Assembly: GCA_964234715.1 (NCBI GenBank)
Contig: OZ174276.1
From: Podarcis melisellensis
Taxonomy: Eukaryota
DNA length: 64,000 bases
Strand: one strand, 5' to 3'
In this document: positions 15,001-59,952 of the stretch, one piece after another
Position numbering within the stretch: position 1 is the stretch's first letter
How the letters are laid out: each line of letters starts with the position of its first letter
Notes under the pieces: generated by a model
Told to the model about the DNA's origin: nothing
The model's database searches: none
The model's input: only the letters and a program-made list of their open reading frames with translations
Translations under genes and position numbers: made by a program

Positions 15001-18000
15001 ATCAGGGATGGCAACGGCCTTGGGTTGCTTTGGCAAGAAAGGTTGCCAATGTGTCTGCGTTCAGGAAGTGCAGAGTATAAGCTTTTTGTGCAAGGTGCAT
15101 GATGTTCATGCATTTGAACTAAGCATCCTTCATTGTTCTTGGGAATGCATAGCATGTCTGTGGCATAGTAGCTTCGCTATTGTTTCTTCAGAAGTCACTT
15201 AAGACAAACTTACTGAGTACTAGACTTAGGAGTTTATAGCGCTTGAATTTTGCAGTAGTAACTTAAACAAAAAGGTGACTGCGAATTGAGTATAATGAGG
15301 ATTTTCCCAACTGGGGGTGCGAGTCTTGTTGGGCTATATTGCAAAACTAAAGCTGTTTTTAAATCCTTCCAAATAGGAAAACTGGTAGACATAAGTCTAA
15401 ATAAATCTAGCAGCGTTTTCTGCAAAACAAGCAGGCAGGACCTTGATATAAAGATAAGGAGAATTCGGGCTGCAAATGTCAAGGATGTATTATCAGGCAT
15501 TTCGCAACTCATTTCCTCAGGCTGCAAACCTTGAGGTCCTCCTGCCTTTTGTTATGGATCATTATCATACTCAATAGCTTATGGGTTCTTTTTGGAAAAG
15601 CTAAACTGGAAATTCGTGACAAAACAATGTGTTCTTGAGGGGAGATGGTCTCCGTGTCCCATTTCCCAACACCCCAATTTGGCTATATAGAGTGTGTATT
15701 TCCTTGGCCCTCTTTCCACTGGGATGGCTACTGGCCAATATAAAAAACTGGGAGACTTCCCTAATTGTGGAAATAATTTTTGAGCTCCTATTTTGTATCT
15801 TGTAGGGGCTGGTGTTGGTGATATAGGTGTAGAAGTTGAAGATCCTCAAGGGAAGAACCCCGTGGAAGTTGCAATAGAAGACAAAGGAAATCAAGTCTAT
15901 CGTTGCGTGTACAAACCTCTTCAAGCTGGTCCCCATACCATTAAAGTGGCGTTTGCTGGAGAGCAAATTCCCAAAAGCCCTTGGGGTATTCATGTTGGTG
16001 AAGGTATGTGTTTAGGGCAGACGTATAACTATTTAACCATATTACTGGATACATGTGCACATTAAGTGCAGTATCTATGAGACTCTCTAAACATGGGAAT
16101 TTAGTCTTTTGGCTTGGATAATGCAGTTCAATTCTTGCATGAAAGTCATTTCCCCCAAAAAGGACTTTTAAGTGTTAGTATCTTATCACATTTAACTAAC
16201 TGGGTTTTATCAGTCTTGTCATCCTAAATGACCGCATTGCTCCTTCTTACACTTTTAGAATTGAGCTTTCTTGCTGTGTCTCTTTAAAACCAACTATATT
16301 CACTTTATTTTGTATCACAACTCTCTTCCCTTCTTGAACTGACACTTGGCTTTCTATTCCATCTTTGCCTGCTCCTGTGCTTTCAGACCTCTGCTCACCT
16401 CTCCTGAGCTACTTTCAATTTGTGAGATGTTGGACTTCACTGCTATTGGCTTCATAGTTGGGCAAGCTCTGTCGGTAAGAGGGTGTGCAGGGTGAACTTG
16501 TGTTGCTGCGTTTTTTTCTGAACACCTAGTCAGCAGGCAGGTTTGCAGCCCTGAGCAGAAGTGGCTGGGTTGTATGAAAATGTTGCAAGCGGCAGGTCAG
16601 GCTTCAGGCAGTCTCGCAAGAAGTCAAACGGCTTAACCACAAACTGCCAAACTTTGTTGCAAGGAGCTTGAAACTGAACTTCGGCTTGCTGCTACATTCC
16701 TGGTTTGCTTCATCTACAAGATGGATGTAGAACTAGTCAATGCAGATTGGCTGGGGGGTGAGAATTCCCTGCATGCTTGCAGCAGGACAGCTTTTCGTGG
16801 GATGAATTGGTTTTCCCTCCAAGGAAATGGTTGCCAACTCCAGAAGGAAATGCATGGAGTTGAGCTGTTGGGAGCCCAAGCCTGCATGCCTCACAGTCCA
16901 GTTTCACGGCTAGGCCAAATACTGACAACTGTGAGCCTGCTTATCTCCCATAAATCATTCTGTATGTGGTCTTTTTCACACTGTGTATCCAGTGGTTTCT
17001 GCATACAGACCTGCTTTCCCTAATAGTGACGGTGTTCAGGAAAGCATGTTTAAACTCTTGCGTGTGAATTATATTTCCCCACCTCCATGGTATTGTTCAT
17101 TTCAGGCACACCTGCATGGGGCTTCCTCTGGGGGGATTAAATTTGCTAATTTAGGGGCAATAGCAGGATCAGCATAGCAACACTGTCTCAACAATGCAAG
17201 GTGCAACATCTCTATGAGATGCTCCCTGTCTCATGCTATGTTTCACTTCTTGCCCTCTTCTTCAATCCCCACCCCTTGAAACCTGAGACTTCACTGGGGG
17301 AAAAAAAAGTCTGGTTCAAACTGGAAGGTTTCATCTGCATGCATGCCCTAAGGCAATATGCCCTCCTAAGTTTGAAACTGTGAAAATGAGGATACTTTGC
17401 TCCTTTTACTATTGTAAGACCAACAACACTTTCCTTTTTTTAAAAAACAAGTTTTTGCAGTTTTCCCCATCTCTCATGCTGTTGTAAATTTGTTAGGAGT
17501 TTAGTTCATTTAAACAAGACTTGGGTTTGTACATAGTGAAGCACGTGAAGCAAAAAAACTGCAACCCCCAGTTTTATGTTAATATAATGTGCATTGACAG
17601 CCTCAGTCTTGCCTCCTTAAGACTGCAAAATGGTGTTCAGGTTTTACATTTCATAAACTTAAAATCTCATCCATCTTAAAGCAAGCTGAGAGAAACTGTT
17701 CCAGACTAGCTTGGCTAAGTTAAATATCTCTAGGAATCAAAGGCTGTATTGATGTCTGTCTGCAATTCGCTTGCAGCGTGCAATCCAAATGCCTGCCGTG
17801 CCAGTGGTAGAGGCCTCCAACCTAAAGGAGTTCGGATCAGAGAAACCGCAGACTTCAAGGTTGATACTAAAGCCGCAGGGAGTGGAGATATCCATGTGGC
17901 AATAAAAGGACCAAGTAAGTGCTCGGCTTCTTAGCATTGCTGGGGCTTTGGGGTGGGGCCAGGGAAGTTTGCAAAGGGCTTAAAAGTGTAATCCATCAGC

Positions 18001-36000: not shown

Positions 36001-39000
36001 TTTTTTGCCAATTTTTCACACACACCCCAGTCGCCTGCGCCCCTGGTGGGGGCCCATCTCACCAACCCCTTAGCTACGGTCCTGCTGGCTGGTGTTCATG
36101 GGAGTTGTAGTTGAACAACATGGGGAAGGCACTACATGTTCTAGAGCAGGCACCCCCAAACTCGGCCCTCCAGCTGTTTTGGGACTACAGTGGTGCCTCG
36201 CAAGACGAAAGTAATTCATTCCGCAAGTTTTTTCTTCTTGCGAGTTTTTTGTCTTGCGAAGCACGGTTTCCCATAGGAGTGCATTGAAAATCAATTAATG
36301 CGTTCCTATGGAGACCGCTTGCCAGGCTGGCGGTGCGGAGAAGGGCTTTTCTCCCCACCGCAAGCCTTCAGCACAGGTACGGGAACAGAGGGGAAGGCGC
36401 GCAGCACTTCTCCTCTGTTCCCGGGGCTTGCGGTGGGAGGAGGGTTTTTCCTCCCCACCGCCAACATTCAGAACAGCATTCTGAATGTTGGCGGTGGGAA
36501 GGAAAACCCTCCTCCCACCGCAAGTCTTCAGGACAGCCATCCGAAGGCTGGCGCGGGGAGGAGGTCTCTCCGCCCCACCACCAGCCTTCGGAGGAGGTCC
36601 GAGGACAGTGGGGAAGACGCGCTGCGCTTCCCCGCTGTCCCGGAGATTTCCCTATGGGCTTTCGTCTTGCGAAGGAAGCCCATAGGGAAATTCGTTTTGC
36701 GAAGCGCCTCCAAAATGGAAAACCCTTTCGTCTAGCGGGTTTTCCGTCTTGCGAGGCGTTCGTCTTGCGGGGCACCACTGTACAACTCCCATCATCCCTA
36801 GGTAATACAACCAGTGGTAGGGATGATGGGAGCTGTAGTCCCAAACATCTGGAGGACCGAGTTTGGGGATGCTTGTTCTAGAGTAAACTCTCCTGTATTC
36901 TGAAAATAGTTAATTCAAATAAGGTGGAGACTAATGTAACTTTTGCAATGTTTCCGAGACTTCTCCAGTAAACGTTCATCTTCTGCTTGCAGGTCCTCAC
37001 ACTGTTGAAGTAACCTACGATGATGTTCCTGTACTAAACAGCCCTTTCAGGGTTGATGTTACAGAAGGATGCCATCCTTCTCGGGTGGTGGCCGAAGGAG
37101 CTGGGCTACAAGAAGCCTTCACAAATAAACCAAACCCATTCACTGTTGTCACTCGGTAAGTATGATGGACTGTATTCTGATACGTTAATGTGGGCAGAGT
37201 AAGCTGCGTATTTGTAAAATAAAGTTGGAAGATCTGACTGTAGATGCATGAAGCAGAATTTCAGGTGTCCTTGCCTCTCCTTCCAAAGTAGCTGATTGAC
37301 AGGGACATGCCATGGGCTAGGTACAAATAGCAAGAAGCAACTTAGAGATCTTGACGTTACCACAGGCTTAAACATTGTCATCTTCCTTACAAACCCGCCC
37401 ACACACCTTCAACTCACTGCTTTGATTCTTGATGACTTTCCCCAGACTGTCTTTGTGTGATTCACACGCCTGCCAAGTAATGTCCTCACTAATGACTTCA
37501 GAATTCCCCAGGCTAAATTGGACTTTAAACTGAAGAAACCATTAATCAATCAACATGTAGACCTACCTGCATTACAGGTTCTTATTCTTCTCAACTGTCT
37601 AGTAGGCTACTGTCATTCTGAGAGAATGCAGCAGAGAACAATTAGTTGCAGTCATGCAAAGCAAAGTGGGCTCTTGAGTTTAAAATGCTGTAATAGAAAC
37701 ATGTTAACTGTTTTCCCCCCCTTTTCTTAAATGCTTGCAGAGGGGCTGGAATTGGCGGCCTTGGAATAACTGTTGAAGGACCCTCAGAATCCAAAATAAG
37801 TTGTAAAGATAACAAGGATGGCAGCTGCAGTGCAGAATATATTCCTTACGTTCCAGGAGACTATGATGTCAACATAACTTATGGGGGCGAACACATCCCT
37901 GGTAAGATGGCTTGCATCCTGAGGTTGGATTCAAAGTAAAAGCCTGTGAACTGACTTTCATGTTGGAGAACACTTTTTTTTTAAAGGATGTTGTAATGTA
38001 TAATAAATAATGTGCGTTGCATTTGAAAAAGTCAACATATCATGCTTTTGCAAGAACATTCCCAGTGGGAATCAGGGTCTCATAGCAGAGCCTTTAGATT
38101 TTTGGGAATACAAAGCAAATAGCCTTATTGACCTATAACACAATAGTAGTATATTTTGCTGCTCTTTGACCGCTACATAAGAATTTCTTACACAGAGTCC
38201 ACCTAGCTCAGTGTTGTCTACACTAACTGGCAGCAGCTCCCCAGGTTTTGAGTTTGGGGTTATCTCCCAGCCCTACCTGGATTGTCCGGAGATTGAGAAT
38301 CTGGGATTTCTTTCATGCGAAGCTGATGCTCTGCCACTGAGCCACAGCTCTACCCCAAATGTATCTAAAGATTTTGTGGTGGGTGCTAGAACCAACTTTC
38401 AGTGCCCCAAAACTTATTTTTCTCACCTCATTAGAGCATCAAGTTCACATTGCATACAGTCCCATTTCAATTAAAATTTAATCCTTGTCCATCTCAATAG
38501 CCAGTATAAATCTGATTTAAGTTGCCCAATTTTATCAGGATAGTCATCAGTGGGGGACCAAGGGAGCAGTGTGAGAGGAGCTGGGCTGCTTAGGGGTGGC
38601 TGTTGACGCACCTTTACACAAGTTGCTACATTCCCCTTTGTACTAAGCTAGCACTTCCTTCATTGGCAGGCAGTCCATTTAAGGTTCCTGTAAAAGATGT
38701 CGTTGACCCCTACAAGGTGAAAGTCTCTGGACCAGGCCTGGGAACAGCAGTCCGTGCCGGAATTCCCCAGTCGTTTACTGTAGATACCAGTAAAGCTGGG
38801 GTAGCACCACTCGAGGTTACAGTAACAGCGCCCAGAGGTAATGTGTTCCACTGCAATCGCTTGATATTTCTTTTAAATGAGTTGTATGATTAGCAGAAGT
38901 CATCACTTGGAAGCACCTGAGTGATAACTGGTAAGAGTTGTTGAATTGGAAGCACTAAGAAAAAGTAGCGTCGTGTGCAGTTCTGAAGTTCAAAGTTTTG

Positions 39001-42000
39001 GGAACTGTTGATATATTTATTACTCTGTAGTGCTTCAGAAAGTTGGGAGCTTCAGTAATCAAGGTCTCCTTTATAACTCAGTTGGGAGTCTTCAAGGCAA
39101 GTCTAGTGTTTAAACAGACATGGGAGGACAGCAGTTTGAGTACAGTTGTACCTTGGAAGCTGAATGGAATACATTCCAGAAGTCCGTCCGATTTCCAAAA
39201 CGTTTGGAAACCAAATTGCAGCTTCTGATTGGCTGCAGCATTCAGAAGCCACGGAAGCCCCATCAGATGTTCAGGTTCCAAAAGAACGTTCGCAAACCGG
39301 AACTATCACTTCTGGGTTTGCGTTGTTCAGGAGCCAAAACGTACGAGTTCCAGGGCTGAATGGGGGATCTGCATTTTGAAACACTTCTTGGCTACCTTGA
39401 AGGGCCGCTTACAACCTGTTAAAGATACACCACCTCTTACTCTGTATTTGTGAATAGAAAATGTTAAGGTAGTTATTTCTTTGGCAACGAGTTCATTGAG
39501 CTGCCCTTGGTCCTATCCACTCCTGTGAGACGCAAGTGTCTGGCTGCCTTCTCTGTGAAGTGCCCTGATCCTTGATAAGAGCATGTAGAAAGATTGAGGG
39601 AGGAAAGGGGACAGAGGTGAAGGCCTGAGGAAAACGCTGTGAGAGGGTGGCTAGAAAACAAGGGTTGGAAGAAGGAACAGCCTGGTGGAATGAGGGCTAG
39701 TGGAAGAAGCCCAAAGCAATTCTGATGTTACTAGATGCTAAGCACTCTTGTGTGTCAACTATCTAACATACAGAATTGGAATGCATTGAATGTCAGATGA
39801 ATGAAACCCTTCCCCCCCCCCCCAAATTGTACTTGGGTCCCCTCTCTTACCTCATTCTTCCAGTTACTGAAGACCTAACAGGCTTTTATTTAATGTGTTC
39901 TGAGTACTGCAGACTTATGCAAGAATACTTGAGTACGTAAAATACTTATTGGAGCAAGTACGTTTCAGCTGTTGGCAGATCTAATTCAGCTTCATCTTAA
40001 GAAGTCTTTCTTCGCTGAAGTTGTGAAAGCAACTCAGCCCAAGGGCCAGGGGAGGCAATGGCATTTGGAATTAAATTGCATGTACACTGCACACCGTGAA
40101 CCTATGCTGAACGGGATGCACTTGGTCTAACGTAGCCGTTGCATGAATAAACCACCTTTTGTGTAATTGGTTTTAAGGCAAACATGTCTCAAGGGACAAC
40201 TGACAGAGCTCTGATTTTGTATTACTAAGTTAATAGCTTTTTGATTCTAGCTGATGAGCCGGATACCCAGTCATGGCGCAGTCCGCTGAAAGCAATTTCA
40301 GAGTTCTTTAAAGGTGACCCACAGGGTGAATCTAATGAGACAGGTTTGAACTTTTACTAACTAATTACCTGTGCCTCCAGCAAATCCTCTAAACTGTATA
40401 AAGTGCTGCTGTGAATGAGCTTAATTGAACTTCTCTGCTTAACTGCCGCTGTACTATTAATTCTCCACTGAGTTATCCTTTTTACTAAACCGTTCCTTGT
40501 TTGATTTATATGCACACTTACTATGGTCCTTGATCTAAATTGTAACTGCAGGCAGTTCTAATCATGTTTGCAACTAATCTTGTGAAATAGCTGCATGTGC
40601 AAATCCACATATCTTGATTTTCTGGGAATAGGTCCTTGGAGCTCTTCTTACCTTGAACTAGCCGATCATAACACTTGTTTGACAGCACCAAATTTTGTTG
40701 ACTGCGCTCAACCTCTCAATGTCATACTGAGGGGTAGAGCCTAAAGAAGGCAGGGTATTTTTTTTTTCATTCTGCACCAGTTTTCATATATTTATTCATA
40801 TGTCAGTTTGATCCCATTTCTACATTAATCTGCATTTTTAATATAAAAAAGCACGAACATTTGTATTCAAATACATATTGTCATAATAAATACTTTAAAA
40901 TGCATATTTTATCAGTTTCTCAACCTTTTAAATGCTAAAATATGCAGTTTAATTTTTTTACACATTTTGCTGTTTTTGAGAAGTGTATCGCAAAATTTGG
41001 AGAGCTGTTCTGATCTTTGTATTAATCTGGGAGGTGCAAATTGATTTGGTTTGCTCATCGATGCAGACCAAATAAATCTCTCCTCCATGCCTGGGTTATA
41101 ACGAAAGTTACTAACTATTCCTGACTAACACGCAGTACTGAATTGGATGTTGAGCCTAATCAGTAGTAGTGTTCAAATAAAAAAAGTCTTCCTTTTTCTG
41201 GAAGCTTATATTTAAATGTGCCCGATAACTGACCTAACCAGCTGTATAATTTTGGAACAATAAATCACTCCAACCCCTATTTGATGGGGGTTTCTTAGCT
41301 TACAGCCATTGGAGTTGAGCCAGCCAAGGAACTGCTAGTGATTTCACCTCTCTCTAATTGATGAGGTCACAGACTGGGAATGATAGGAATAAATTGGCTT
41401 ATCTGAACAGACCACAAAGCAGATGTCTCTGCAGATTTCCTGCAAAGCTTTAAATCAGCATTGTGTGTGTGTGTGTGTTGGTGCTCAAAGCGGCAAAAAT
41501 TGCTCGTGTGTCATTGAGGCCTTTGATGAGAGGGTGGCCAAAGGAATTGAAATGTGGTCTTTTTACTATTTAGGCTTGGCAGAACCTGTAAATATAGTTG
41601 ACAATGGTGATGGCACCCATACAGTAGCCTACACACCTACGAAAGAAGGTCCCTACACAGTTGCAGTAAAGTATGCAGATGAAGAGATTCCTCGCAGGTA
41701 AGAGTGGGGTGTAGGAAACAAAGCTTATTGTGCAAACTGCAGTGCTGTTGGCTGGCCTCCAAGTTTGAGGTGGGTTGCATTGTTGTTCATGAGCTTAGTC
41801 TTTGCACTTAGTTTTGGTAAAGAGGCTTTAAAGAAATGCTTCTACAGCAAGGACTTGGTTCCTCCTGGTGGTTGTCAGAGAGGGGGAAGAGGCTACAAAG
41901 TGCTGTGCATTTCCTTGAACTGTAGAATCTAGCAAACATTCTGTAACTATCCCAGTGTTTGCTTCTGCCAAGGACCATGTGCTGCTATTATTGCTTGAAT

Positions 42001-45000: not shown

Positions 45001-48000
45001 ATCCACAGCGGTCCGTTTCTGGTAGGGTGTATGTCGTGACATTTTCTGGTTGTTTAAAGGCATTAAGGGGGCACAGTGGGCTTCAAGGGAAAGAGCAGCT
45101 GTCTCTACTGCAATAACCACCTACTTCTTTTCACACTCCCCAACTTACAACCAGCAACCTGTCGTTTGAAAGCTGACACAAGGATCATGCTTTCTGCATG
45201 AATATAGCTTTGTGTTGCTCATGCCGATGGCAAGTCATGCAGGGCTCCTTTAAAGTTAAGCCAAACTACTTTAGTGTTCACAAACTTACAGACCTCTCCT
45301 TATCAAAGTATGCTGTGGTACCCTGATAAAAATTCTCATCTGTAAAACATTGCTGTCTTGTGTGAAAAATGCTTTTGATGTGTTACAAGTGCCAGATAAA
45401 GGAGAAATGGATCTGGAGGTGCAAATGAATCTCTTCCCCACTAATCCACCTCCACATGCACCCAGGGGACCTTGTGCTACAGCTGGGGTGGTTTGCAAAG
45501 GTTTCATGACAAAAGCCTGGTTTAGGCTTGCTTGTCTGCAAAAGTTTGGATTAACTTGCTGGGTGTTTCATAATGCAGGTGTCTAAAAGGAAACTGCACA
45601 GAACTTTCTTGGCAGAAGATATGAGAATCTGCTCTGATGCTCACCATACCATTTATCTCCTAGGTCCTGGCATTGCAGACACAGTGAAGTCAGGAGAGGA
45701 AGTTGGCTTTGTGGTTGATGCTAAATCTGCAGGCAAGGGCAAAGTGACGTGCACTGTCCTGACACCAGAGGGTACAGAAGTCGAAGCAGAAGTAATTGAA
45801 AACGAGGATGGAACATACGACATCTATTACACAGCTGCTAAACCAGGAACCTATGTAATTCATGTCCGCTTCGGTGGCGTGGACATTCCAAACAGCCCCT
45901 TCACCGTCATGGTAAGATACCTGGCTTTTGGTTTCGAAACCCTTTGCGTGAACTTAAGAGTAGAGTGAGCATGTTAGCTTTAATAAGTCACATGAAGTTT
46001 GACACAGTCGTTTGCAGCCTGTTAGTCCAATCCTTATCAAGAGTAATGAGAAGAAAGTTCTGTTGAGTTCCGTAGGACAAACCCACAGGTAAGTGGCGCT
46101 AGGATTGCAGCCTAAATTAGCATTTGGAGTGAGCTGAGTGTTTTGCCTATGTGGTTCTTGTGGACAAAGCACTGTTTTTTCGGCTATGAGAAATACTACT
46201 GCACAAAACCCTAGTGTCGGATGCCATTCTTCAGATCTGCTGTTGTACCACTTTCCCCTTGTTCAGGGCTCTTCAGCATTGTGGTCCCAGCTAGTTGGGA
46301 ACTGTGAGCAAGAAGTCAGCCCAACGCATAGTGCGTGCGCAAGAATGGAGTTCCGTCACAAAGGGCTTTGGGGCACATTCTCGTTTCATGTGGAAGAGAG
46401 GGAAGGTGGCTAGCTTGGAAGTGCCATGCAACCCTTGAGTTCTGCTTCTGGTGTAGCTGCTTTCACCTCTCCCACACTGTGCGTGCCACAGAACCCTATG
46501 CATATGTACCTCTAAGTTGCGATGTTTTTAATAAGCTCTATGAATGAAGAGGGTTTTTAAAACTATACCTTGCCTTTTGCCACTAACTAGGCTACAGATG
46601 CAGATGAAGTTGCAGTGTTGTCTCAGGAGCCACTAAATGCAGCATGTCCCCCTGGATTCCATCCCTGGGTACCTAGTTTTGTTTTTTTACACTGTCTTCT
46701 GTGTTCCATGCAAGAGTTGACATCCTGCCTCTTGGGTCTGTTTAAGCTTGCTTTCTTGTCATATCTTACTGGTGATCAAAAAGCTACTTTGGGGCAACTT
46801 GGGTTTGATTCAGAACCTTCCTTCATATATATTTATATATATATATATTTAACAACTCTTAACATCACAATCATTTTAAACAGTGCATCTGTGGTACTTT
46901 GTCCTTAGGGAGCTATTTTCTTCTTGACTTCAGATGGTGAACGGCTTCTTCCTAGAGTATTGTCACTGACCATTTTGCTCTGGCTTTATGTTTTGGTTTC
47001 TCTTCTGCTTTTTTAAAAAACACAACTTTCTTCCAGACCATAGCCAGCTTCAGTGTTCCTTTGGACGGAGCTATCCTTGCATCTTTTACTCTTCCATTTT
47101 GTATGTTTTTAAAACTCTCTTCTGAATGTTTTTCATGTAAAACAATGAATGGGAGCAAAGCTTTGTGTGGTGGTCAAAAGTCTGCAGTTGAGTGGTGTCT
47201 TCATTCTGGATGCAACTGTCTGGACTGACCAAAAATAGCTAAGCAAACTGTTTTGTGCTAGAACTCCTAAAATGACAATAACTTTTTCTCCACAATAGGT
47301 CACGGAAGAAGCTTATGTTCCTGATGGTGACATGAATGGTCTTGGGTTTAAGCCCTTTGATATGGTCATTCCTTTCGCAGTAAGAAAAGGAGAAATAACT
47401 GGTAAACAAGCTTTCAGCACACAGTTGATCACTCTCTTTAAAGCAGTGGTGAGGACCCTGTGGCCCGCCAGATGTTGGGCTCTTAACTCCCACAGTCCCT
47501 GACAGCTGGTTGGGGCTGATGTAGGTTAGAGGCAGCATCTGGAGAGCCACAGAGTCTCCATCCCTTAGTTAATGTCAAGGAAAATGCCTTGCCCCCACCT
47601 GTCTTATGAGTGCCCCTTGCATGGCTCAGTAGTTTAGCTTTGTAATACATTGTAGTAGAAGCATAGATTTCACCCTGCAAGATAATCTTTCAAAAAGATT
47701 GTGCTATTGTTTGGCCTTAGCAGAGCTGGGAGGAGATAAAAATGAAGCCCTCCTAGAGTAGCCATGATTGTCCTGTCCTTGTTACCCACTGCACAAGTCT
47801 ATTTAATCTGCTCTTAAGCATCATCCAGAGCAACAGCTCTTCATTGGGGCCTTCAATTATTATTTCTTCTTCTTATTTATTGAATTTCTATATTGCCCTT
47901 CATCCGAGGATCATGGAGCGGTTCACAATATAAAAACACAAAAATACATACCATAACAATTATCATTATTGTTATTTATTGAATCTGTATACCACCCTTC

Positions 48001-51000
48001 ACCCGTAGATCTCAGGGCTGTTCACAACAAAAACAAGAAAAAGCCTTGCACAAAATGCTAAAACCAAAGCGCCTGAAAATAATATCCCACCCCTACACTG
48101 TTAAAAAGGCCATAGATTGTTTAATTAGCCAAAGGTCTGGTGGAAGAGGAACATTTTTGCCTGGTGCCTAAAGGTGTTACAATGAAGGTGCCAGGCGAAC
48201 CTCCCTGGGGAGAGCATTCCACAAGTGGGAAGCCACTGCAGAAAAGACCTTTCTCATGTTGCTGCCCTCCAGATCTCTTATGGAGGAGCCTCACAGAGGA
48301 GGTCCTTTGATCATGATTGCAAGGTCCGAGTAGGTTCATATGGGGAAAGGCTGTCCTTGAGGTATTGCGGTCCTGAGCTTGAAAACAGTCAGCTTTGGCA
48401 GGCCATGGCAAACTCTATAGAGAGTTGTAGATGCCACCAGACCTTGATGGCTTGATGGATTTTGTCTGTCTAAGCCCAACCTTCAAGGACACGACTTGCG
48501 TTAAAAAATATTAGCGTGTTATACTCTGGTTGTTATCAGAAGAATAAATGGATCTCCAAGCCTTAATGCAGGAGAATTTTTGTAAGTGCTTTCAAAGAAA
48601 TGCAGGGAAACCTTTGCAACTTTGTATAACCTCCCCCTCCCCTGTTTATATGAGTGAAAGGAAGGGCCCCAATACCATGCGGATTTGAGTGTGAAAACAC
48701 TAAAACACATGGCTTTGCTTTTTGAAGTATTGTGCAGTTTGAGTTCAGTTTGAGCCTTGCGTTTTCAGGGGAAGTTCACATGCCCTCGGGGAAGACTGCA
48801 CCAGCAGATATTGTTGATAACAAGGATGGCACTGTAACCGTCAGCTATGCCCCTGTTGAGGTTGGATTGCATGAAATGCATATCAAATACATGGGCAGTC
48901 ATATTCCAGGTGAGTGCCAGCTGATCTCAAATCAGCACTACGTTATGTTACAAGAACTCAGCTGTTGTTGATTTGCTCCATTTGCCGTTGTTGAGGGCTT
49001 CATTTATTCACACTTTTTCTTCAATTGTGGACACTTCAGTCCTATGAGTTGCCTTGGTCTAGGGTTGTATTGCATGCCTCGTATGATGATGGCAGCTGAG
49101 TGAAGGCAGGAGGAGTTTTTAGTGGGTTTACAGCCTGTGCCAGACTTAAAACAGATTTGGCTTTTGTGGACAGAGTTTTGTGGCCATACTTTTGCAGTTA
49201 GCTTGGAACTTATAATTAACTTATTTTAGTGAAGAGGTACTACAACTAGAATTGAGAAAAAGTTTTGAAATGCATGTGTAAAATATTAGGCCTCCTTTGC
49301 TTAAACTATAATCTGTGGAAAGGATCAAGCTATAAAGAGCTCAGCCCAATTTCCTAGTGAAGTACTTACGCTGCCAGTTTTGACTGCCTGCGCCACTTTT
49401 GCTGGCTGACTCACATGCATCGTCTTCATTGAGAAGTTGTAAAAATGAAAGCTGAATACAATCCATCTGGCCTTCCCCCCTCCCCAGCCTCCTCTCTTAA
49501 GCCAACACTATTAGCTAGCTTAAGGTTTACTACTTGGCAAGAATTTTCAATTAATTTTATCTGGGAAAATGGACAAATCCCTGGTAGTTCAGCTTTTGCA
49601 TACATATTCTCCTGGCTTACTGGGATTGATACAACCAAGAATTCTGCATGGATATTTTTCCTCTTTGGCATGCTGGTGCTTCGGGGGTCACACTCAGTGC
49701 CTTTCCGCACCTGTAGTGCCGCTGCTCAAATAATTTTTATTACATCACTTAGAGTTTTGTGACTAAGCAGCTTTCTAAATAAATAAAACAGAAAGCGATG
49801 GGTGTCCAGTTCCATACTACCTGTGTGTACAGCTCCCTATCTACTCTTGGAAGCGGCATTGCAGGTTTCTGCCCATGTCAAAAGGGGCTTTTTGTCCCTT
49901 GAACTGGGGCACATCCAGACAAACAGGAGCCGGCTCATAGCTTTTGGGGACAGGGACACATTCAGCTATTTCAGCTTTGAAGCCTGTGGCAGAGCTAGAA
50001 ATAGAAGCGCCAGTTAAGTCCCAGCCACAAGAACAGTCTCTGCATAAATCTGGACGTTTTTTATTATAAAAAAAATAGTATTGGCTTTTTTATGTGCTCC
50101 GTGATGATTGGTTTAGTGAATCTCTGGCAAACTCAAACTTCACTGGCAACAACCAGTTGATAAATTTGTAAGGAATAGGATCCTTTACATGGGCATGACT
50201 GAGGACATGCTCTTTTCTTGCTGGTAGAAAGCAACTGCATGGGATGGTTGGAGTTCCTGCTGTGTGGGTGTATAAACTGGGAGGTGTAAGGCAAAGTCCT
50301 GTGGGAGGCTTTGATGGTTGGGTGCTGCATATGTTCATTATTTGCAGTAGCAGGCTTTCTAGAGTGCTCTAGTACACTTTGGGGCGGTGAATAAATGTGA
50401 AACCTAAATGGAAACCAGTGAAACACTGAAATCAGAGGAGGATAAAGTTACTGGAACTGAGCAGGATGCTTGAAAACTTTCGTAAATGCTCATGATTGAC
50501 AGTGGATCTAGCATTTAATTTCTTGCAAGGCTCTCCAGCATCAGAGGCATCATGCCTCCATATATGAATGGCTGGACAACTGCAGCACAAGAGAGCGATT
50601 GCCCCATGTCCTCCTGCTTGTGGGTTTCCTAGATAAGCATCTGGTTAGCCACTGTGGCAAAAGGATGCTGGAGTAGATAGTTCTTGGTCTTATATAACAG
50701 AGGTCTTAATGCGTAGCATTCTCTGTCATACGGAAGGGAATATAGGGAAGAACTGAAAATAAATTCTGTGCGTGCAAGCTTAAGGCGTATTAAATTGCTG
50801 AGTAAACACACAAACCTATATTCGTTCTCTTTGGAGAGATGTACAGAAAGATGTTAAAATAATTTAAATATCCTATCTGAAGTGTGTTTATGCATAGTTA
50901 TTCAACCTTTGCAGAGAGCCCTCTACAGTTCTATGTGAACTATCCCAACAGTGGAAACGTAACTGCCTATGGACCTGGCCTTGTCTATGGTGTAGCAAAC

Positions 51001-54000: not shown

Positions 54001-57000
54001 TATCTACTAAGTTTGCTGATGAGCACATCCCAGGTAAGAGAAAAGGAGCCTACGTAAGCGAGCCATTGCTGGTCCACTTCCCCATCAGCGCTGACCTCTT
54101 GTAATAAGTGCAGAGTCTAGAGGACACCATCTAGGCTACCCACCAGGGCCTTCATGTTCTGAAAATGCCTGAAGAAGCTTGACTGCTAAATTTTGGAAGG
54201 CAGGATAATAAACTTCTTGCGCACCTTGAAGATGCTTTTGTTTGAGGGGTTGTCTCCTGCTGCAGTGTAACACTTATCTCTTTGCTACTCAAACTAGAAT
54301 ATTGGTTTGGTACAGGTGACTCTCAACATACGTGGGGGTTGCGTTCTAGGCTGTAGCTTGCAAAGCCAAACTCACGTATAGTCAAAATACATTGGGGTCA
54401 TAGGTGGGTGGGATTGCCAAAGCCTTTTCTTTCCAGGACACCTGCCCCACCTTTAATTTATTTAAAATTCGTGAAGCATGTAAAGCTGAATGTGTGTAAA
54501 TAGCAAGTTAATCTGTGTAGGAAGATGGGGCTTCCTTGATAGTCATCAGTGATAAGTCTCATGCTTAATGCGCTTGGTTAACAATGCAGTGGTCCAGCCT
54601 TCCTCAGTGGGAAAGAATTCTAAGATGGTAGTGGAAATAACTATTAGTAGACGATATGTTACTTTATTGCCTGTGAAAGTCTTTATGCTTCCTGTACTGA
54701 TAGATGGAACTCAGTGTTGTTTTGTCTCTACTAACTACAGGGAGCCCATTTACTGTGAAAATAAGTGGCGAAGGAAGGGTGAAGGAAAGCATTACACGTA
54801 CTCGGCGGGCTCCTTCTGTGGCCACGGTTGGAAGCTTGTGTGATCTTAACTTAAAAATTCCAGGTAAGTTAGTTCTACTAATACATTTACTGTTTTGGAA
54901 ACCATAAACCAATAAGTCATTGAATCTTCTGGGCATTCTTTGCAATCAGATTTAAAAATGGAATGTTATCCAAATACTTCTAGAGATCAGGGAAGGCATT
55001 CTTATTTAGATCAGGGCTTTGCATGGTAGGACTCACACCAATTTCTTCCTAGGCCCCATGAAGCAGCAGTGGCATTTAAATTTTGCTTTCTAGCACATCA
55101 CCCACTGACTCAGTTCTAATAACAAGTGACCTGGTTCACATGTAATGCTAAGCCAAACCTGGACTTAAGGTGAATGCATAGGCTATTCAAAATGATATCA
55201 TTATTTTTGCCTCTTAGACCTTCCTCCTGTTGCCTGTCTACCTGAGTCTAAGCCACAATTTGACTTAGCACATGGCTGAACCCAGATTTGTTTTATTAAC
55301 CAAGGTTTATTCCTGGTTTCACAGTTTATGGTTTGTCTAGAGGAAACAAACCATGAGCTTGAGTTTGGGCTACATGTTAAGCCAAACCATGGCTTAACTC
55401 ACTGTAGCACAGCAGTACTGGATGAAGAACAATATGCCCAAAATTTCTGTTCTGGGAATTCATTCATTCATGCTATGTGTGAAGTACGGTTGTTAGGATG
55501 ATCTCAGAAGGTTGTACTTGAGTACTGTAATGCTTGACTTCAGCCATATTTTTAGAAGGGTAGGAGCGCAGTTGCTGCTATAGAGATCTGTATCATGTGG
55601 ATCTAACTGGGGGAGACACATAAAATAACTGGATGGTTAAAGAATAAATGCTATCTTGCTAATAGAATGCACTAATACACAGAATATATTCAGCATGCCG
55701 CTTCAGTTTAATACATATTCTGACGTCTGTTTCTGTCTCTTTCTCTGCTGCTCTAATCAATCTTGGTCTTCCTGTCTTCTGTTCCTTTCTTTCCCCCTAT
55801 TGCCTTCTCATAGTTACATGGTTCCAAATGGCTATATGTCTGGAGAGATTGTCCCGTGTTTCACACCAGTTCATTCCCACTTTCCTGTGTGCTGAGCAGA
55901 AGGAAAACTTCCAGACTCAATTGAGAGAACCTTGGTGTCCTAGTTTCACAAAAAAACCAGCCAACACCAGACAACAGTGTTTCCAATCATTCCTTCTATG
56001 GGGTCTACAGATGTATTACATACCTGGCTCCTTAGGGGTAGTGGGTACGTTGTAGTACTGAGGTTGTTCTATAATTGCAATACATACTTCAATAAAATCT
56101 GCTTTAAGGCACAATGCATGGCAAGTAAGCAGCAAAAGTATTTGTTACAAAGACCTGTAACAAACCCTCAGTCAGTAATGGAGCCTGTGGCCCTCCAGAT
56201 ATTGTTGAATTCCAATTCCTATCAGTTCTCAGAATGGGTGATGTTCACTGCACTAAATCCAACTCTGTTCCCAAATAAAATTAGTTTCTTCCTTTCCTTT
56301 CCTTTCCTTTCCTTTCCTTTCCTAAGAGAACTTCAAAGAATCTTAAGCACAACCCCTCCTGGACATATTTGTCTGTAACTTGGTAGATTTGATCTGCTCT
56401 GTTGTGGGGGGAGTCTATTATGCCTGCAAATTCCATCCTCTTCTGTCAACAGGAAAAGGTCGGGTTTTTTTTTTACTTCCCAGTAGTTATTGGTGTGGGG
56501 GATGAAGTGGACTTAAGTTGGGTGATTCAATTCTTGATTCATTTGTCAAGTGCTTCAGAAAGAGGCAGACTGCTTTCTGAATTGTGCACCTGCTGTGTAC
56601 ATTGATCAAGTAAACATTCAGAAAAAAAGGGGGGAGTGGGCTCAAATTTAACTCATCCCCCACACTTGAATGCCTGTGACTCTGTATGAGTGCAGTTGAG
56701 GCTCTATCCCAATTCCATATTTTGCAAGAAAAGGGAGCTGCTTAATATGCTTAAATCTTTTGAAGTATTCTCTTTTAATTTCGTTTGATAGATTCTATAG
56801 CTTCAAAAATGGATGGTTGGGGCTCAAAGAGCAATGTATTGATTTCTCATTACCTGCTGCAAGCTCTCTTAACTCTGCTTTCTGCAGTCAATGGAGACAC
56901 CGTGACTTGCTTGTCAAGGGTGGTTGGGTGACAAAATAATTGGATTTGTGAAGATTCTTGGTTTTTGAGATGAGCTGATAAGTATGTGCTTGTCCCTAAT

Positions 57001-59952
57001 ATATATATATCTGACACTCTGCATGCACAGATGAATGCTTGGTATGCACTCACTTAATCGTCAGTTATGTTTTGCTGGTTGCAGTTCTGGGAAGTTGAGT
57101 TCCATCAGGTTCCCAGCAAATGTCTGCCAGGTAAAAGTGTTTTGGTGTATGATCTATAGACGAATGTGCATTCAAGGGCCACTTTGCATGTAATGTTTGA
57201 GGGCATTTCAAACATCTGAAAGCAGCTGACTTTGGAACTTCCAATAGATCCCAAGAACCTCAGTTGTAGAGTCAACTAAACTTGGTGACTGGGTTTCCTA
57301 TGGGGAAGGTTTCAAAACAACTGAAATACTGGGGAGCTCTGCCCTCGTGCACTGGGCAATGTTTAGATGTTTAGAAACCAAATCTACCTGCTCCCCATTA
57401 ATGGTCAGTTCCTTTTTTTTTAGAAATCGACATTGGTGACATGTCAGCTCGGGTCACTAGCCCATCTGGGAGAATGACAGATGCAGAAATAGTAGAGCAT
57501 GATAAAAACACGTACTGTGTCCGCTTTGTACCACAAGAAATGGGGGTCCATAATGTGGATGTGAAATACAGAGGACAGCATGTGCCAGGCAGTCCATTCC
57601 AGTTCACCGTTGGGCCGCTTGGTGAAGGAGGGGCCAATAAGGTCAGAGCTGGCGGTCCAGGACTTGAAAGAGCAGAGGCAGGCATCCCAGGTAAGACCTT
57701 CACTAAATTTCATCTGAATACATGGGCATGGGTCTAAGGGCCTTGCAGTGAGAAGGGACGATAGCTGTAATCTTGGAAAAGGGTGCTTACATCTTGTAAC
57801 ACTAGAACACATTTTTGGAAGCCTAGTGACACTACCTTGTGTTGCAGAGCCCCATATCACAAAGGGATTGGAGGGCCACTTGCCTGCTTCTAATTCCTGG
57901 GTTGTTGTTGTTGTCGTTAACAGCTGAGTTCAGCATCTGGACAAGGGAAGCTGGAGCTGGAGGTCTTTCCATTGCAGTAGAAGGACCAAGTAAGGCAGAA
58001 ATTGCTTTTGAAGACCATAAAGATGGATCGTGTGGTGTATCATACACTGCTCAAGAGCCTGGTATGGATATCTTAAGCATTAGCAAGTTGAAATGAAGCT
58101 AAACACCACAAAAACAATTCCTCCTTACTTAGCAAAGTTCTTATTTCTTCCAGGTAACTACGAGGTGTCCATCAAATTCAACGATGAGCATATTCCAGAA
58201 AGCCCGTACCTGGTTCCTGTGATTGCTCCTTCCGATGATGCTCGTAGGCTCACTGTTATGAGCCTTCAGGTGAGACATAAGGAAGCATCTCCCATAGCCT
58301 ACCACAAGCTGATACCATCCTTGTGCTCAAGCTCCTTAAAATTATTACTTGCTCACTAGCTACACTTCTTCAGAGGAGATCCCTTGGCAAGCATGTAGGC
58401 CTTCCAAGTTAGGAAACAGCATCTGAAAAGGGGCGACTCTTTCCTAGTGCTATTCAGCTAAGGAACAACTGTGGCCTCCATTCTCCCTGCACAGTGGCAC
58501 TAAGCAGTTCTATAAACCTTGCTGTTAATTTTCTCACAAGCTTTGTCTATGTATGACAGTGTTCAGCAATGAAGCAATACTAAGTGGGGTAAGTTGGCTT
58601 GCATGATTGCATGCTGACAAGGCAGTTAGGCTAACATGCAACATTTCTGCTTGGCGTATGCTCCCAGAATGCACATGGTTGAACAAATGAGGCTCTGGGG
58701 TGAGCACAGAGCAGTAATTCACACATGTGCAGATGTTGCAAAACCACAAGCTTGTACTTTAAATGATTCTTAAACAGCAGCCAAAGTCTGAGTGGATTCC
58801 AGACTTCTAGCGGCTTGAGTTTGTACATAGTCCTGACTTTTTCGTGGTGTGCATCTAGCAACATTTTTAAGTGACTGTCTTTAATCTAAAATAAGAAGCC
58901 TGGAAGTTTCAGATTGAGCGCCATCCAGCCCATGATGTGTAGATTTGCTGCAGCTTGAGGCAGCAGTATTGGTTAAATTGCACTGCTTTTCAGAACTATG
59001 GTTTTATAGACTGACATTTGGTGTAACTTTCTAGCCAGAGCTGAACTTAAAACAAGGAGTTACAAGGACGATAATTAGCTGCTGTGGTACTGATGTTTTT
59101 CTTGTGTTTCATTTAAAGACTCTTGACAGAATGTGTGGTGTCAGCTGACTTAAACCCTGAAGAGGGAAATAAAACTGATATTTTTTTTGGGGGGGGGAGG
59201 AGTAATCTTTTTACAAAAGATGTCTTTTGGCACTCCATAAAAAACTTCCTTGGTGTATTTTAGCTGCCTGTTTCAGTTTATTTCTCTCTTGAGGATAAAA
59301 CTGTTAAGTTGAAATTAAGGTAAGCTCTGCACTGAAAGCAAAAGCGCAGCATTCCAGCGACCCTCCCCCCCGATGGAACTTCAATTTTCCAGTGGCTGGG
59401 GGCGGGAATCACACATGCATAACACCAGGAGACTGTGTTTTTTTGTATGTGTGGTGACCGCTACTGGGGAGCAGGTGTGCATTGATATATACTTTTGGTT
59501 CCACCTTTGCTGGCATGTTAACAGAAATCTCCAAAACGTTGTATTTGTTGGCATGGGGTGAAACATGCTTTGCTTAATCAGAAAGCTCCAGGCTTAATTG
59601 TCGGTGCAATATGGAAATTTGTTTTTGGCAGCATATTAATGAGTTAGCTACACAATTAGGAAAAGGGATTTCAAGTGATTTTGGGAGTATGGCAAAGCAA
59701 ATTCAGCCCAGACAACCATAAAGATTTGGGCAGCGCAAGCTTAAAGCTAATGCATTTGATGATTATGGGGCTGGCATCCTACATTTGTAGCAAAATGATG
59801 ACCAAAATGATGACTTATAGTCAGACCAGAAAAAAGTGTGTGGGTAGACAAACTTAACCAAGCCCACACTTTGGGAATGTATTGTACTGCTGTTGAGGAA
59901 GATAATTAGTTGTTAATAATAAATAATAATAAATAAATTGATGATGATGATG

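Follow-up and report, generated by a model that had tools for sequence, protein, structure and literature searches.

A candidate frameshifting poison exon in intron 8 of the filamin B gene of Podarcis melisellensis, at the position of the mammalian FLNB poison exon

Results

The window analysed here, a stretch of 64,000 nt from Podarcis melisellensis, carries the filamin B gene (FLNB), identified by exon 2, in which 84 of 84 aligned residues are identical to human filamin B. Three filamin genes are found in the 1.57 Gb genome, of which the copy on contig C17 is FLNA-like. Coding exon 8 lies at 15806-16003 on the plus strand (198 nt, ending in phase 1) and has spliced joints in all four of the RNA runs described below; the number is one that we take over from human FLNB numbering. 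Coding exon 9 lies at 17777-17914 (plus strand, 138 nt), its limits being taken from RNA contigs. The two exons that border this intron thus have the sizes (198 and 138 nt) of the upstream and downstream flanks of the human FLNB poison exon. Searched against its own genome by a method that skips very common words, the sequence gave one match each for 16200-16560 and 16700-17400, so that both are single-copy DNA, and a repeat origin of the exon and of the TGCATG region discussed below was rejected.

The candidate poison cassette exon occupies 16387-16474 (plus strand). It is 88 nt long (3n+1) and frameshifting. Its acceptor region (16366-16386, plus strand) ends with an AG at 16385-16386 and scores 4.6, compared to a median of 4.8, on a crude weight matrix for the called FLNB exons; these comparison exons are 29 automatic calls, some of them mis-called. 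The acceptor is preceded by three TGC motifs (at 16366, 16370 and 16378), as against none to two at all 29 of the other FLNB acceptors, an arrangement that would fit an SRRM4-type enhancer. A branch-point-like CTGAC at 16339-16343 (plus strand) is the sole match to the branch pattern in 16201-16386. The donor, at 16472-16480 (plus strand, cut between TCG and GTAAGA), was called strong in an earlier, sequence-only reading of this DNA. It is better described as moderate: it is the best of 13 GT sites in 16400-16560, but scores 3.4 on the crude matrix, where the median is 5.8, and only seven of the 29 called exons score lower, some of the seven being mis-called. All the positions given in that reading (for the CTGAC, the exon, the donor, the TAG and the seven TGCATG) proved to be correct. 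On the crude matrix the short exon has a usable acceptor and a usable donor, with a branch-like site in addition; 34 acceptor-donor pairs in the 64-kb window match its crude score, several of them outside mapped exons.

Read in the frame of exon 8, the exon contains a TAG at 16455-16457 (plus strand), 17 nt before its end. This stop stands 155 nt upstream of the exon 9/10 junction, and many junctions lie downstream of it. If the TAG were absent, the shifted frame would run into a fallback stop at 17808-17810, which is 32 nt into exon 9 and still more than 50 nt before the next junction. By either route, predicted inclusion places a stop more than 50 nt ahead of a later junction.

Some other arrangements were considered. 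With a possible alternative acceptor AG at 16257-16258 (plus strand, score 4.9) and an unchanged donor, the exon would be 216 nt long and, by eye, would contain a stop within the CU tract. A 98-nt version of the exon was rejected, the GT after the 98-nt position scoring only -6.4. An ordinary coding exon was also rejected, in that the frame following on from exon 8 is closed and the sole open frame is not that of exon 8. As to intronic polyadenylation, AATAAA is absent and a single ATTAAA is present at 17136. Directly after the donor (16475-16520) the sequence is rich in runs of G and in repeats of TG/TGC, with a T run behind them; these are possible sites for other splicing regulators.

Upstream of the exon there is an AG-free tract (16266-16384, plus strand) that is 72% pyrimidine and contains seven PTBP-type motifs (YUCUYY/YYUCUY), starting at 16267-16330. 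The distance from the AG at 16264 to the AG at 16385 gives 121 nt free of AG, in agreement with the AG-free, CU-rich tract of about 120 nt that was first noticed. This ties with the longest in the 64-kb window, compared to AG-free zones of 5-44 nt for all 29 called FLNB exons. Seven PTBP-type motifs in 121 nt are equalled by 0.7% of sampled windows, and the pyrimidine content by 0.16%; there are four other places in FLNB that reach nine such motifs in 120 nt. The motifs are found upstream (seven) and within the exon (two), with none in the 121 nt downstream.

RBFOX-type TGCATG motifs are found in intron 8 at 16136, 16770, 16851, 16883, 17113, 17336 and 17340, that is, a single upstream site (16136-16141, plus strand) and a distal cluster of six in single-copy DNA (16770-17345, plus strand), at +296 to +866 from the donor. 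The original count of seven, six of them downstream, holds, but the sites at 17336 and 17340 overlap within one 10-nt element. Over the 1773-nt span that was searched, the shuffle mean is 1.07 and none of 2000 shuffles reaches seven; for the six downstream sites the mean is 0.86, again with none of 2000. The density of 3.95 per kb is the top value among 32 inter-exon stretches. The excess is real but moderate once the whole window is allowed for: six TGCATG in 571 nt occur in 23 of 5000 random placements, and seven in 1773 nt in 415 of 5000, with intermediate spans giving 81 of 5000 (1204 nt) and 98 of 5000 (1302 nt). Two of the sites are intact in a related organism, which is uninformative at 3% divergence. 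An RNA structure bridging the exon to the cluster was considered and rejected, the folding of 16440-16920 being nothing unusual (z -0.06).

A rule by which (T)GCATG in the downstream intron goes with activation by RBFOX is given in bioRxiv 10.1101/2024.09.09.612108, the available text of which does not mention Flna or Flnb; nor did the literature consulted yield RBFOX data on the 98-nt exon of mammalian FLNB. The sequence-only reading had taken the downstream position as favouring RBFOX action. All six sites are indeed downstream, but they are 296-866 nt away, with none near the donor. It is worth adding that over the FLNB window as a whole (1-64000) TGCATG is strand-biased (51 sense vs 21 antisense, p 0.0005), that 45 are observed from 8.8 kb on where 28.7 are expected from the 4-mer content, and that smaller groups are present at 48910-50914 and 54864-57423.

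Two further optional exons of FLNB were sought in the window. The hinge-1 exon is apparently 78 nt here (46591-46668), compared to 72 nt in human and mouse tables; an ACTAAC at 46582, which we take to be a QKI-type motif, adjoins its acceptor, and there is a peak of PTBP motifs downstream at 46911-47030. For the human optional exon of 93 nt, between the 168-nt and 124-nt exons, no convincing match was found in 38838-41573, where the two candidates of 93 nt both have poor splice scores.

RNA evidence comes from the assembled contigs of four runs (X1-X4) of a related organism, from two studies; they are four of 18 runs guessed to be RNA among 24 listed. Exon 8 is joined directly to exon 9 in all four assemblies (depth 88-203), and skipping is thus the main form seen. 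The joint expected from exon inclusion was found in none of the four, which is a weak negative given that the tissues are not labelled and that contigs lose rare forms; targets of nonsense-mediated decay (NMD) are moreover scarce. Unspliced intron 8 contigs are present in all four runs at depth 2-5, extending across the acceptor in three and across the donor in run X4. A greater contig cover of intron 8 than of intron 7 was set aside as a bias from the selection of runs, which were picked by intron-8 words.

The same contigs permit a comparison of sequence. The tract and exon together (16204-16481) have two differences in 278 nt (0.7%), compared to 68 in 2039 nt (3.3%) for nine other intronic pieces and 1.0% for coding exons. 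The lower divergence (Poisson p 0.005, Fisher p 0.014) is as expected from purifying selection, in a test that is post hoc, is based on one close species pair, ignores indels and includes some overlapping comparison pieces; the listing of differences lacks 23 rows, but includes both of those in tract and exon. The difference in the tract is one T>C, which leaves a pyrimidine. The acceptor, the branch-like site and the donor are unchanged, the donor region being identical in X1 record 3 and X4 record 16. The sequence-only reading laid emphasis on the in-exon TAG, which is present and in frame here, but which reads TAT in both of the covering runs (X1 and X4, from the same study, at depth under 5). 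Because the in-exon stop is lost in the relative, it is likely that the frameshift is the retained property; selection would appear to retain a length that shifts the frame, together with the signals for splicing, and not the stop within the exon.

The similar exon of Flnb that the sequence-only reading mentions is found in the mouse and human tables, as an exon of 98 nt. In human, Table S4a of PMC13078869 has an FLNB exon of the NMD_in type at chr3:58099637-58099735 (hg38), of 98 nt and with flanks of 198 and 138 nt; it is flagged there as conserved in mouse, and has a delta-PSI of +0.137 on cycloheximide in induced neurons (FDR 3e-4). The mouse exon, also 98 nt, is at chr14:7886025-7886123 (mm10) in rows of PMC13078869 and PMC11188260. 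The PMC11188260 row gives a PSI that goes from 0.16 to 0.84 with cycloheximide at day 6, with PTBP1 inhibition predicted. The PMC13078869 rows give a delta-PSI of 0.16 on Ptbp1/2 double knockdown and of 0.81 in the siPtbp1 data set, a CTCTCC 30-35 nt upstream, one upstream PTBP CLIP peak (with none within 100 nt and none on the exon), and a delta-PSI of -0.03, with no increase, when Upf1 is knocked down. The review PMC12652946 states that Flna and Flnb both have poison exons under repression by PTBP1, and gives Zhang et al. (2016, Cell) as the first report of the Flnb exon.

Other sources proved to concern different events. In file 1 of PMC4755740, each of the six rows for Flnb refers to the hinge exon and not to the poison exon; of four Flnb events tabulated in PMC5989265, none is of 98 nt; and the FLNB poison exon in PMC10123112 is a different one, far downstream. 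The available parts of PMC13751310 and PMC12179342 contain nothing relevant to the FLNB poison exon. A search of the literature made without reptile or bird terms met no FLNB poison exon outside mammals, and we do not claim that such an exon is unreported.

The exon described here resembles the mammalian FLNB exon in its gene, in its intron (the one with 198/138-nt flanks), in being a frameshifting cassette, in having a CU motif just upstream, and in its predicted NMD. It differs in length (88 nt, 3n+1, as against 98 nt, 3n+2), and so shifts into a different frame while still being frameshifting, and in its distance from exon 8, which is 383 nt here, 729 nt in human and 1278 nt in mouse. The mismatch in length counts against identity of the two exons at the level of detail, but not against a like function. 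The proposal that an NMD switch is conserved here is well supported by position and not by length, and it is from position that orthology is proposed.

The sequence-only reading took mammalian FLNA as its reference. The human FLNA exon (chrX:154365744-154365801, 57 nt, flanks of 201 and 138 nt; PMC13078869) does lie in an intron homologous to FLNB intron 8, but the closest known exon is the 98-nt one of FLNB itself. The FLNA exon is similar to the present one in its paralogous position, and is PTBP1-repressed, included in neurons and NMD-triggering; it differs in belonging to another gene and in being a multiple of three, so that it requires a stop of its own. The exon that probably corresponds to it in this genome lies on contig C17, and not in FLNB intron 8. 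The FLNA exon has been linked to periventricular nodular heterotopia (PMC13542418, PMC5816070), and FLNA and disease are also covered by bioRxiv 2025.06.26.661736. There is also a resemblance to the mouse class of PTBP1-repressed, NMD-stimulating cassette exons that silence non-neuronal genes in neurons (Bak1, Iqgap1, Fmnl3 and others; PMC11188260), in the upstream YUCUYY/YYUCUY motifs, in the actin-cytoskeleton gene and in the premature stop upon inclusion, which is predicted here; that class was described in mouse cells, whereas the present candidate is known from sequence.

In the FLNA-like gene, the homologous intron is 489 nt long and has a candidate exon of 89 nt, which is frameshifting, when the best acceptor is used (G000:C17:3431567-3431479, minus strand). 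Of the alternative options, those of 47 and 122 nt shift the frame, and one of 87 nt stays open. The CU tract of this intron has 12 PTBP-type motifs in 120 nt; the donor (CAG/GTGTGG) is at nt 287 of the intron, and a single TGCATG stands 27 nt beyond it. It is likely that the candidate corresponds to the 57-nt exon of mammalian FLNA. The third filamin gene, taken as FLNC-like by elimination, has a homologous intron of 8552 nt (G000:C10:71860811-71869362) with no CU tract and at most five PTBP-type motifs in 120 nt; its six TGCATG are near background density.

In a search of sequence collections for orthologous DNA, none of 136 candidates from genomes, none of 107 from viral sequences and four of 206 from metagenomes were confirmed. 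None of these four is FLNB-like by inspection, and only one, a single sequence on contig L012, spans the whole intron (L012:386-709). It is a vertebrate-type filamin, probably from a fish, and is most similar to the FLNA-like gene, with which it shares 83 of 112 residues (vs 79 and 74 for the other two filamins). In its homologous intron, 120 nt contain 17 PTBP-type motifs; a donor (TGG/GTGAGC) is present at 617, followed by a TGCATG at 704. All three acceptor options to donor 617 lead to an early stop, and the frame is left open in two options that use a weaker donor at 580. The modules of C17 and L012 align marginally with each other (5 of 300 and 22 of 300 shuffles reach the score). The FLNB module has no alignable sequence with either (its scores are equalled by 154 of 300 and 124 of 300 shuffles, and blastn gave no match), so that only position and layout point to a common ancestry for the exons of FLNA and FLNB.

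Discussion

The 88-nt segment is, with good probability, orthologous to the poison exon of mammalian FLNB and would work in a similar way, to judge from its place in the gene and the signals around it. A mechanism can be proposed by analogy with mouse and human. In progenitors and non-neural cells, which are rich in PTBP1, this protein would bind the CU tract in which the branch point lies, blocking the acceptor, and exon 8 would be joined to exon 9; skipping is seen here, and the role of PTBP1 is proposed from the mouse and human data. As PTBP1 falls in differentiating neurons, the 88-nt exon would be included, shifting the frame and bringing in a stop 155 nt before the exon 9/10 junction. 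The premature stop would lead to NMD, and filamin B mRNA would drop. We consider it probable that PTBP1 acts in this way, with inclusion and a decrease in filamin B mRNA following its fall. RBFOX proteins binding at the distal TGCATG cluster may possibly assist inclusion, and a similar contribution from SRRM4 at the TGC motifs is doubtful.

Other explanations need to be weighed against orthology. One is that a PTBP-controlled poison exon appeared independently in the same intron, by convergence or exon turnover, and does not derive from the mammalian 98-nt exon. Length and frame differ, as does the spacing from exon 8, and the modules compared here have no alignable sequence. However, the spacing varies widely even between human and mouse, and CU-rich elements become unalignable quickly; of the more than 40 introns, moreover, it is the same one that has the exon, in a matching layout. 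An independent origin seems improbable.

We also regard it as quite unlikely that the segment is a pseudo-exon or decayed remnant with no useful splicing, its tract and motif cluster being due to chance or left as relics. This would be consistent with the presence of only skipped and unspliced forms in the four runs, with the altered stop in the close relative, and with the fall of the TGCATG excess to 415 of 5000 at full intron length. Against it, the tract and exon have diverged by 0.7%, compared to 3.3% elsewhere, the acceptor, branch-like site and donor are unchanged in the relative, and several rare features coincide in the one intron that has the mammalian exon. It is very improbable that the segment is mainly a decoy that slows or blocks the removal of intron 8 (regulated intron retention), inclusion being minor: all four runs contain unspliced intron 8, and the retained intron would also meet a stop, 24 codons in, but the runs were selected by intron-8 words and their cover is biased, the unspliced depth is 2-5 compared to 88-203 for spliced, and the mouse and human event is tabulated as a cassette exon.

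Taking the exon as the orthologue of the mammalian one, the off-switch of FLNB is likely to be older than mammals. More tentatively, one might picture a switch that was present in a filamin gene before the duplication that separated FLNA from FLNB, and that for more than 400 million years has kept, in one homologous intron, its layout of a CU tract, a short stop-generating exon and downstream TGCATG, while exon length (57, 98, 88, about 89 and 49-117 nt), sequence and the mode of stopping turned over. FLNC would then have lost it, and the FLNB copy would have added the distal RBFOX cluster, so that silencing would need both the loss of PTBP1 and the gain of RBFOX.

Conclusions

The candidate FLNB exon described here extends a known mechanism and is not a new one. 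In mammals, developing neurons silence filamins A and B by means of poison exons that are repressed by PTBP1, and a malformation of the human brain results when the FLNA exon is wrongly included. If FLNB has the counterpart outside mammals as well, the switch would go back at least to the ancestor of the amniotes. Comparison of the versions separates what selection holds, namely the splice signals and the frameshift, from what varies, namely the length and the stop codon, a distinction that helps in judging deep-intronic variants of FLNB. The finding of the same layout in the FLNA-like gene on C17, and in what is probably a fish filamin, makes the idea of one ancestral exon before the duplication a testable one.
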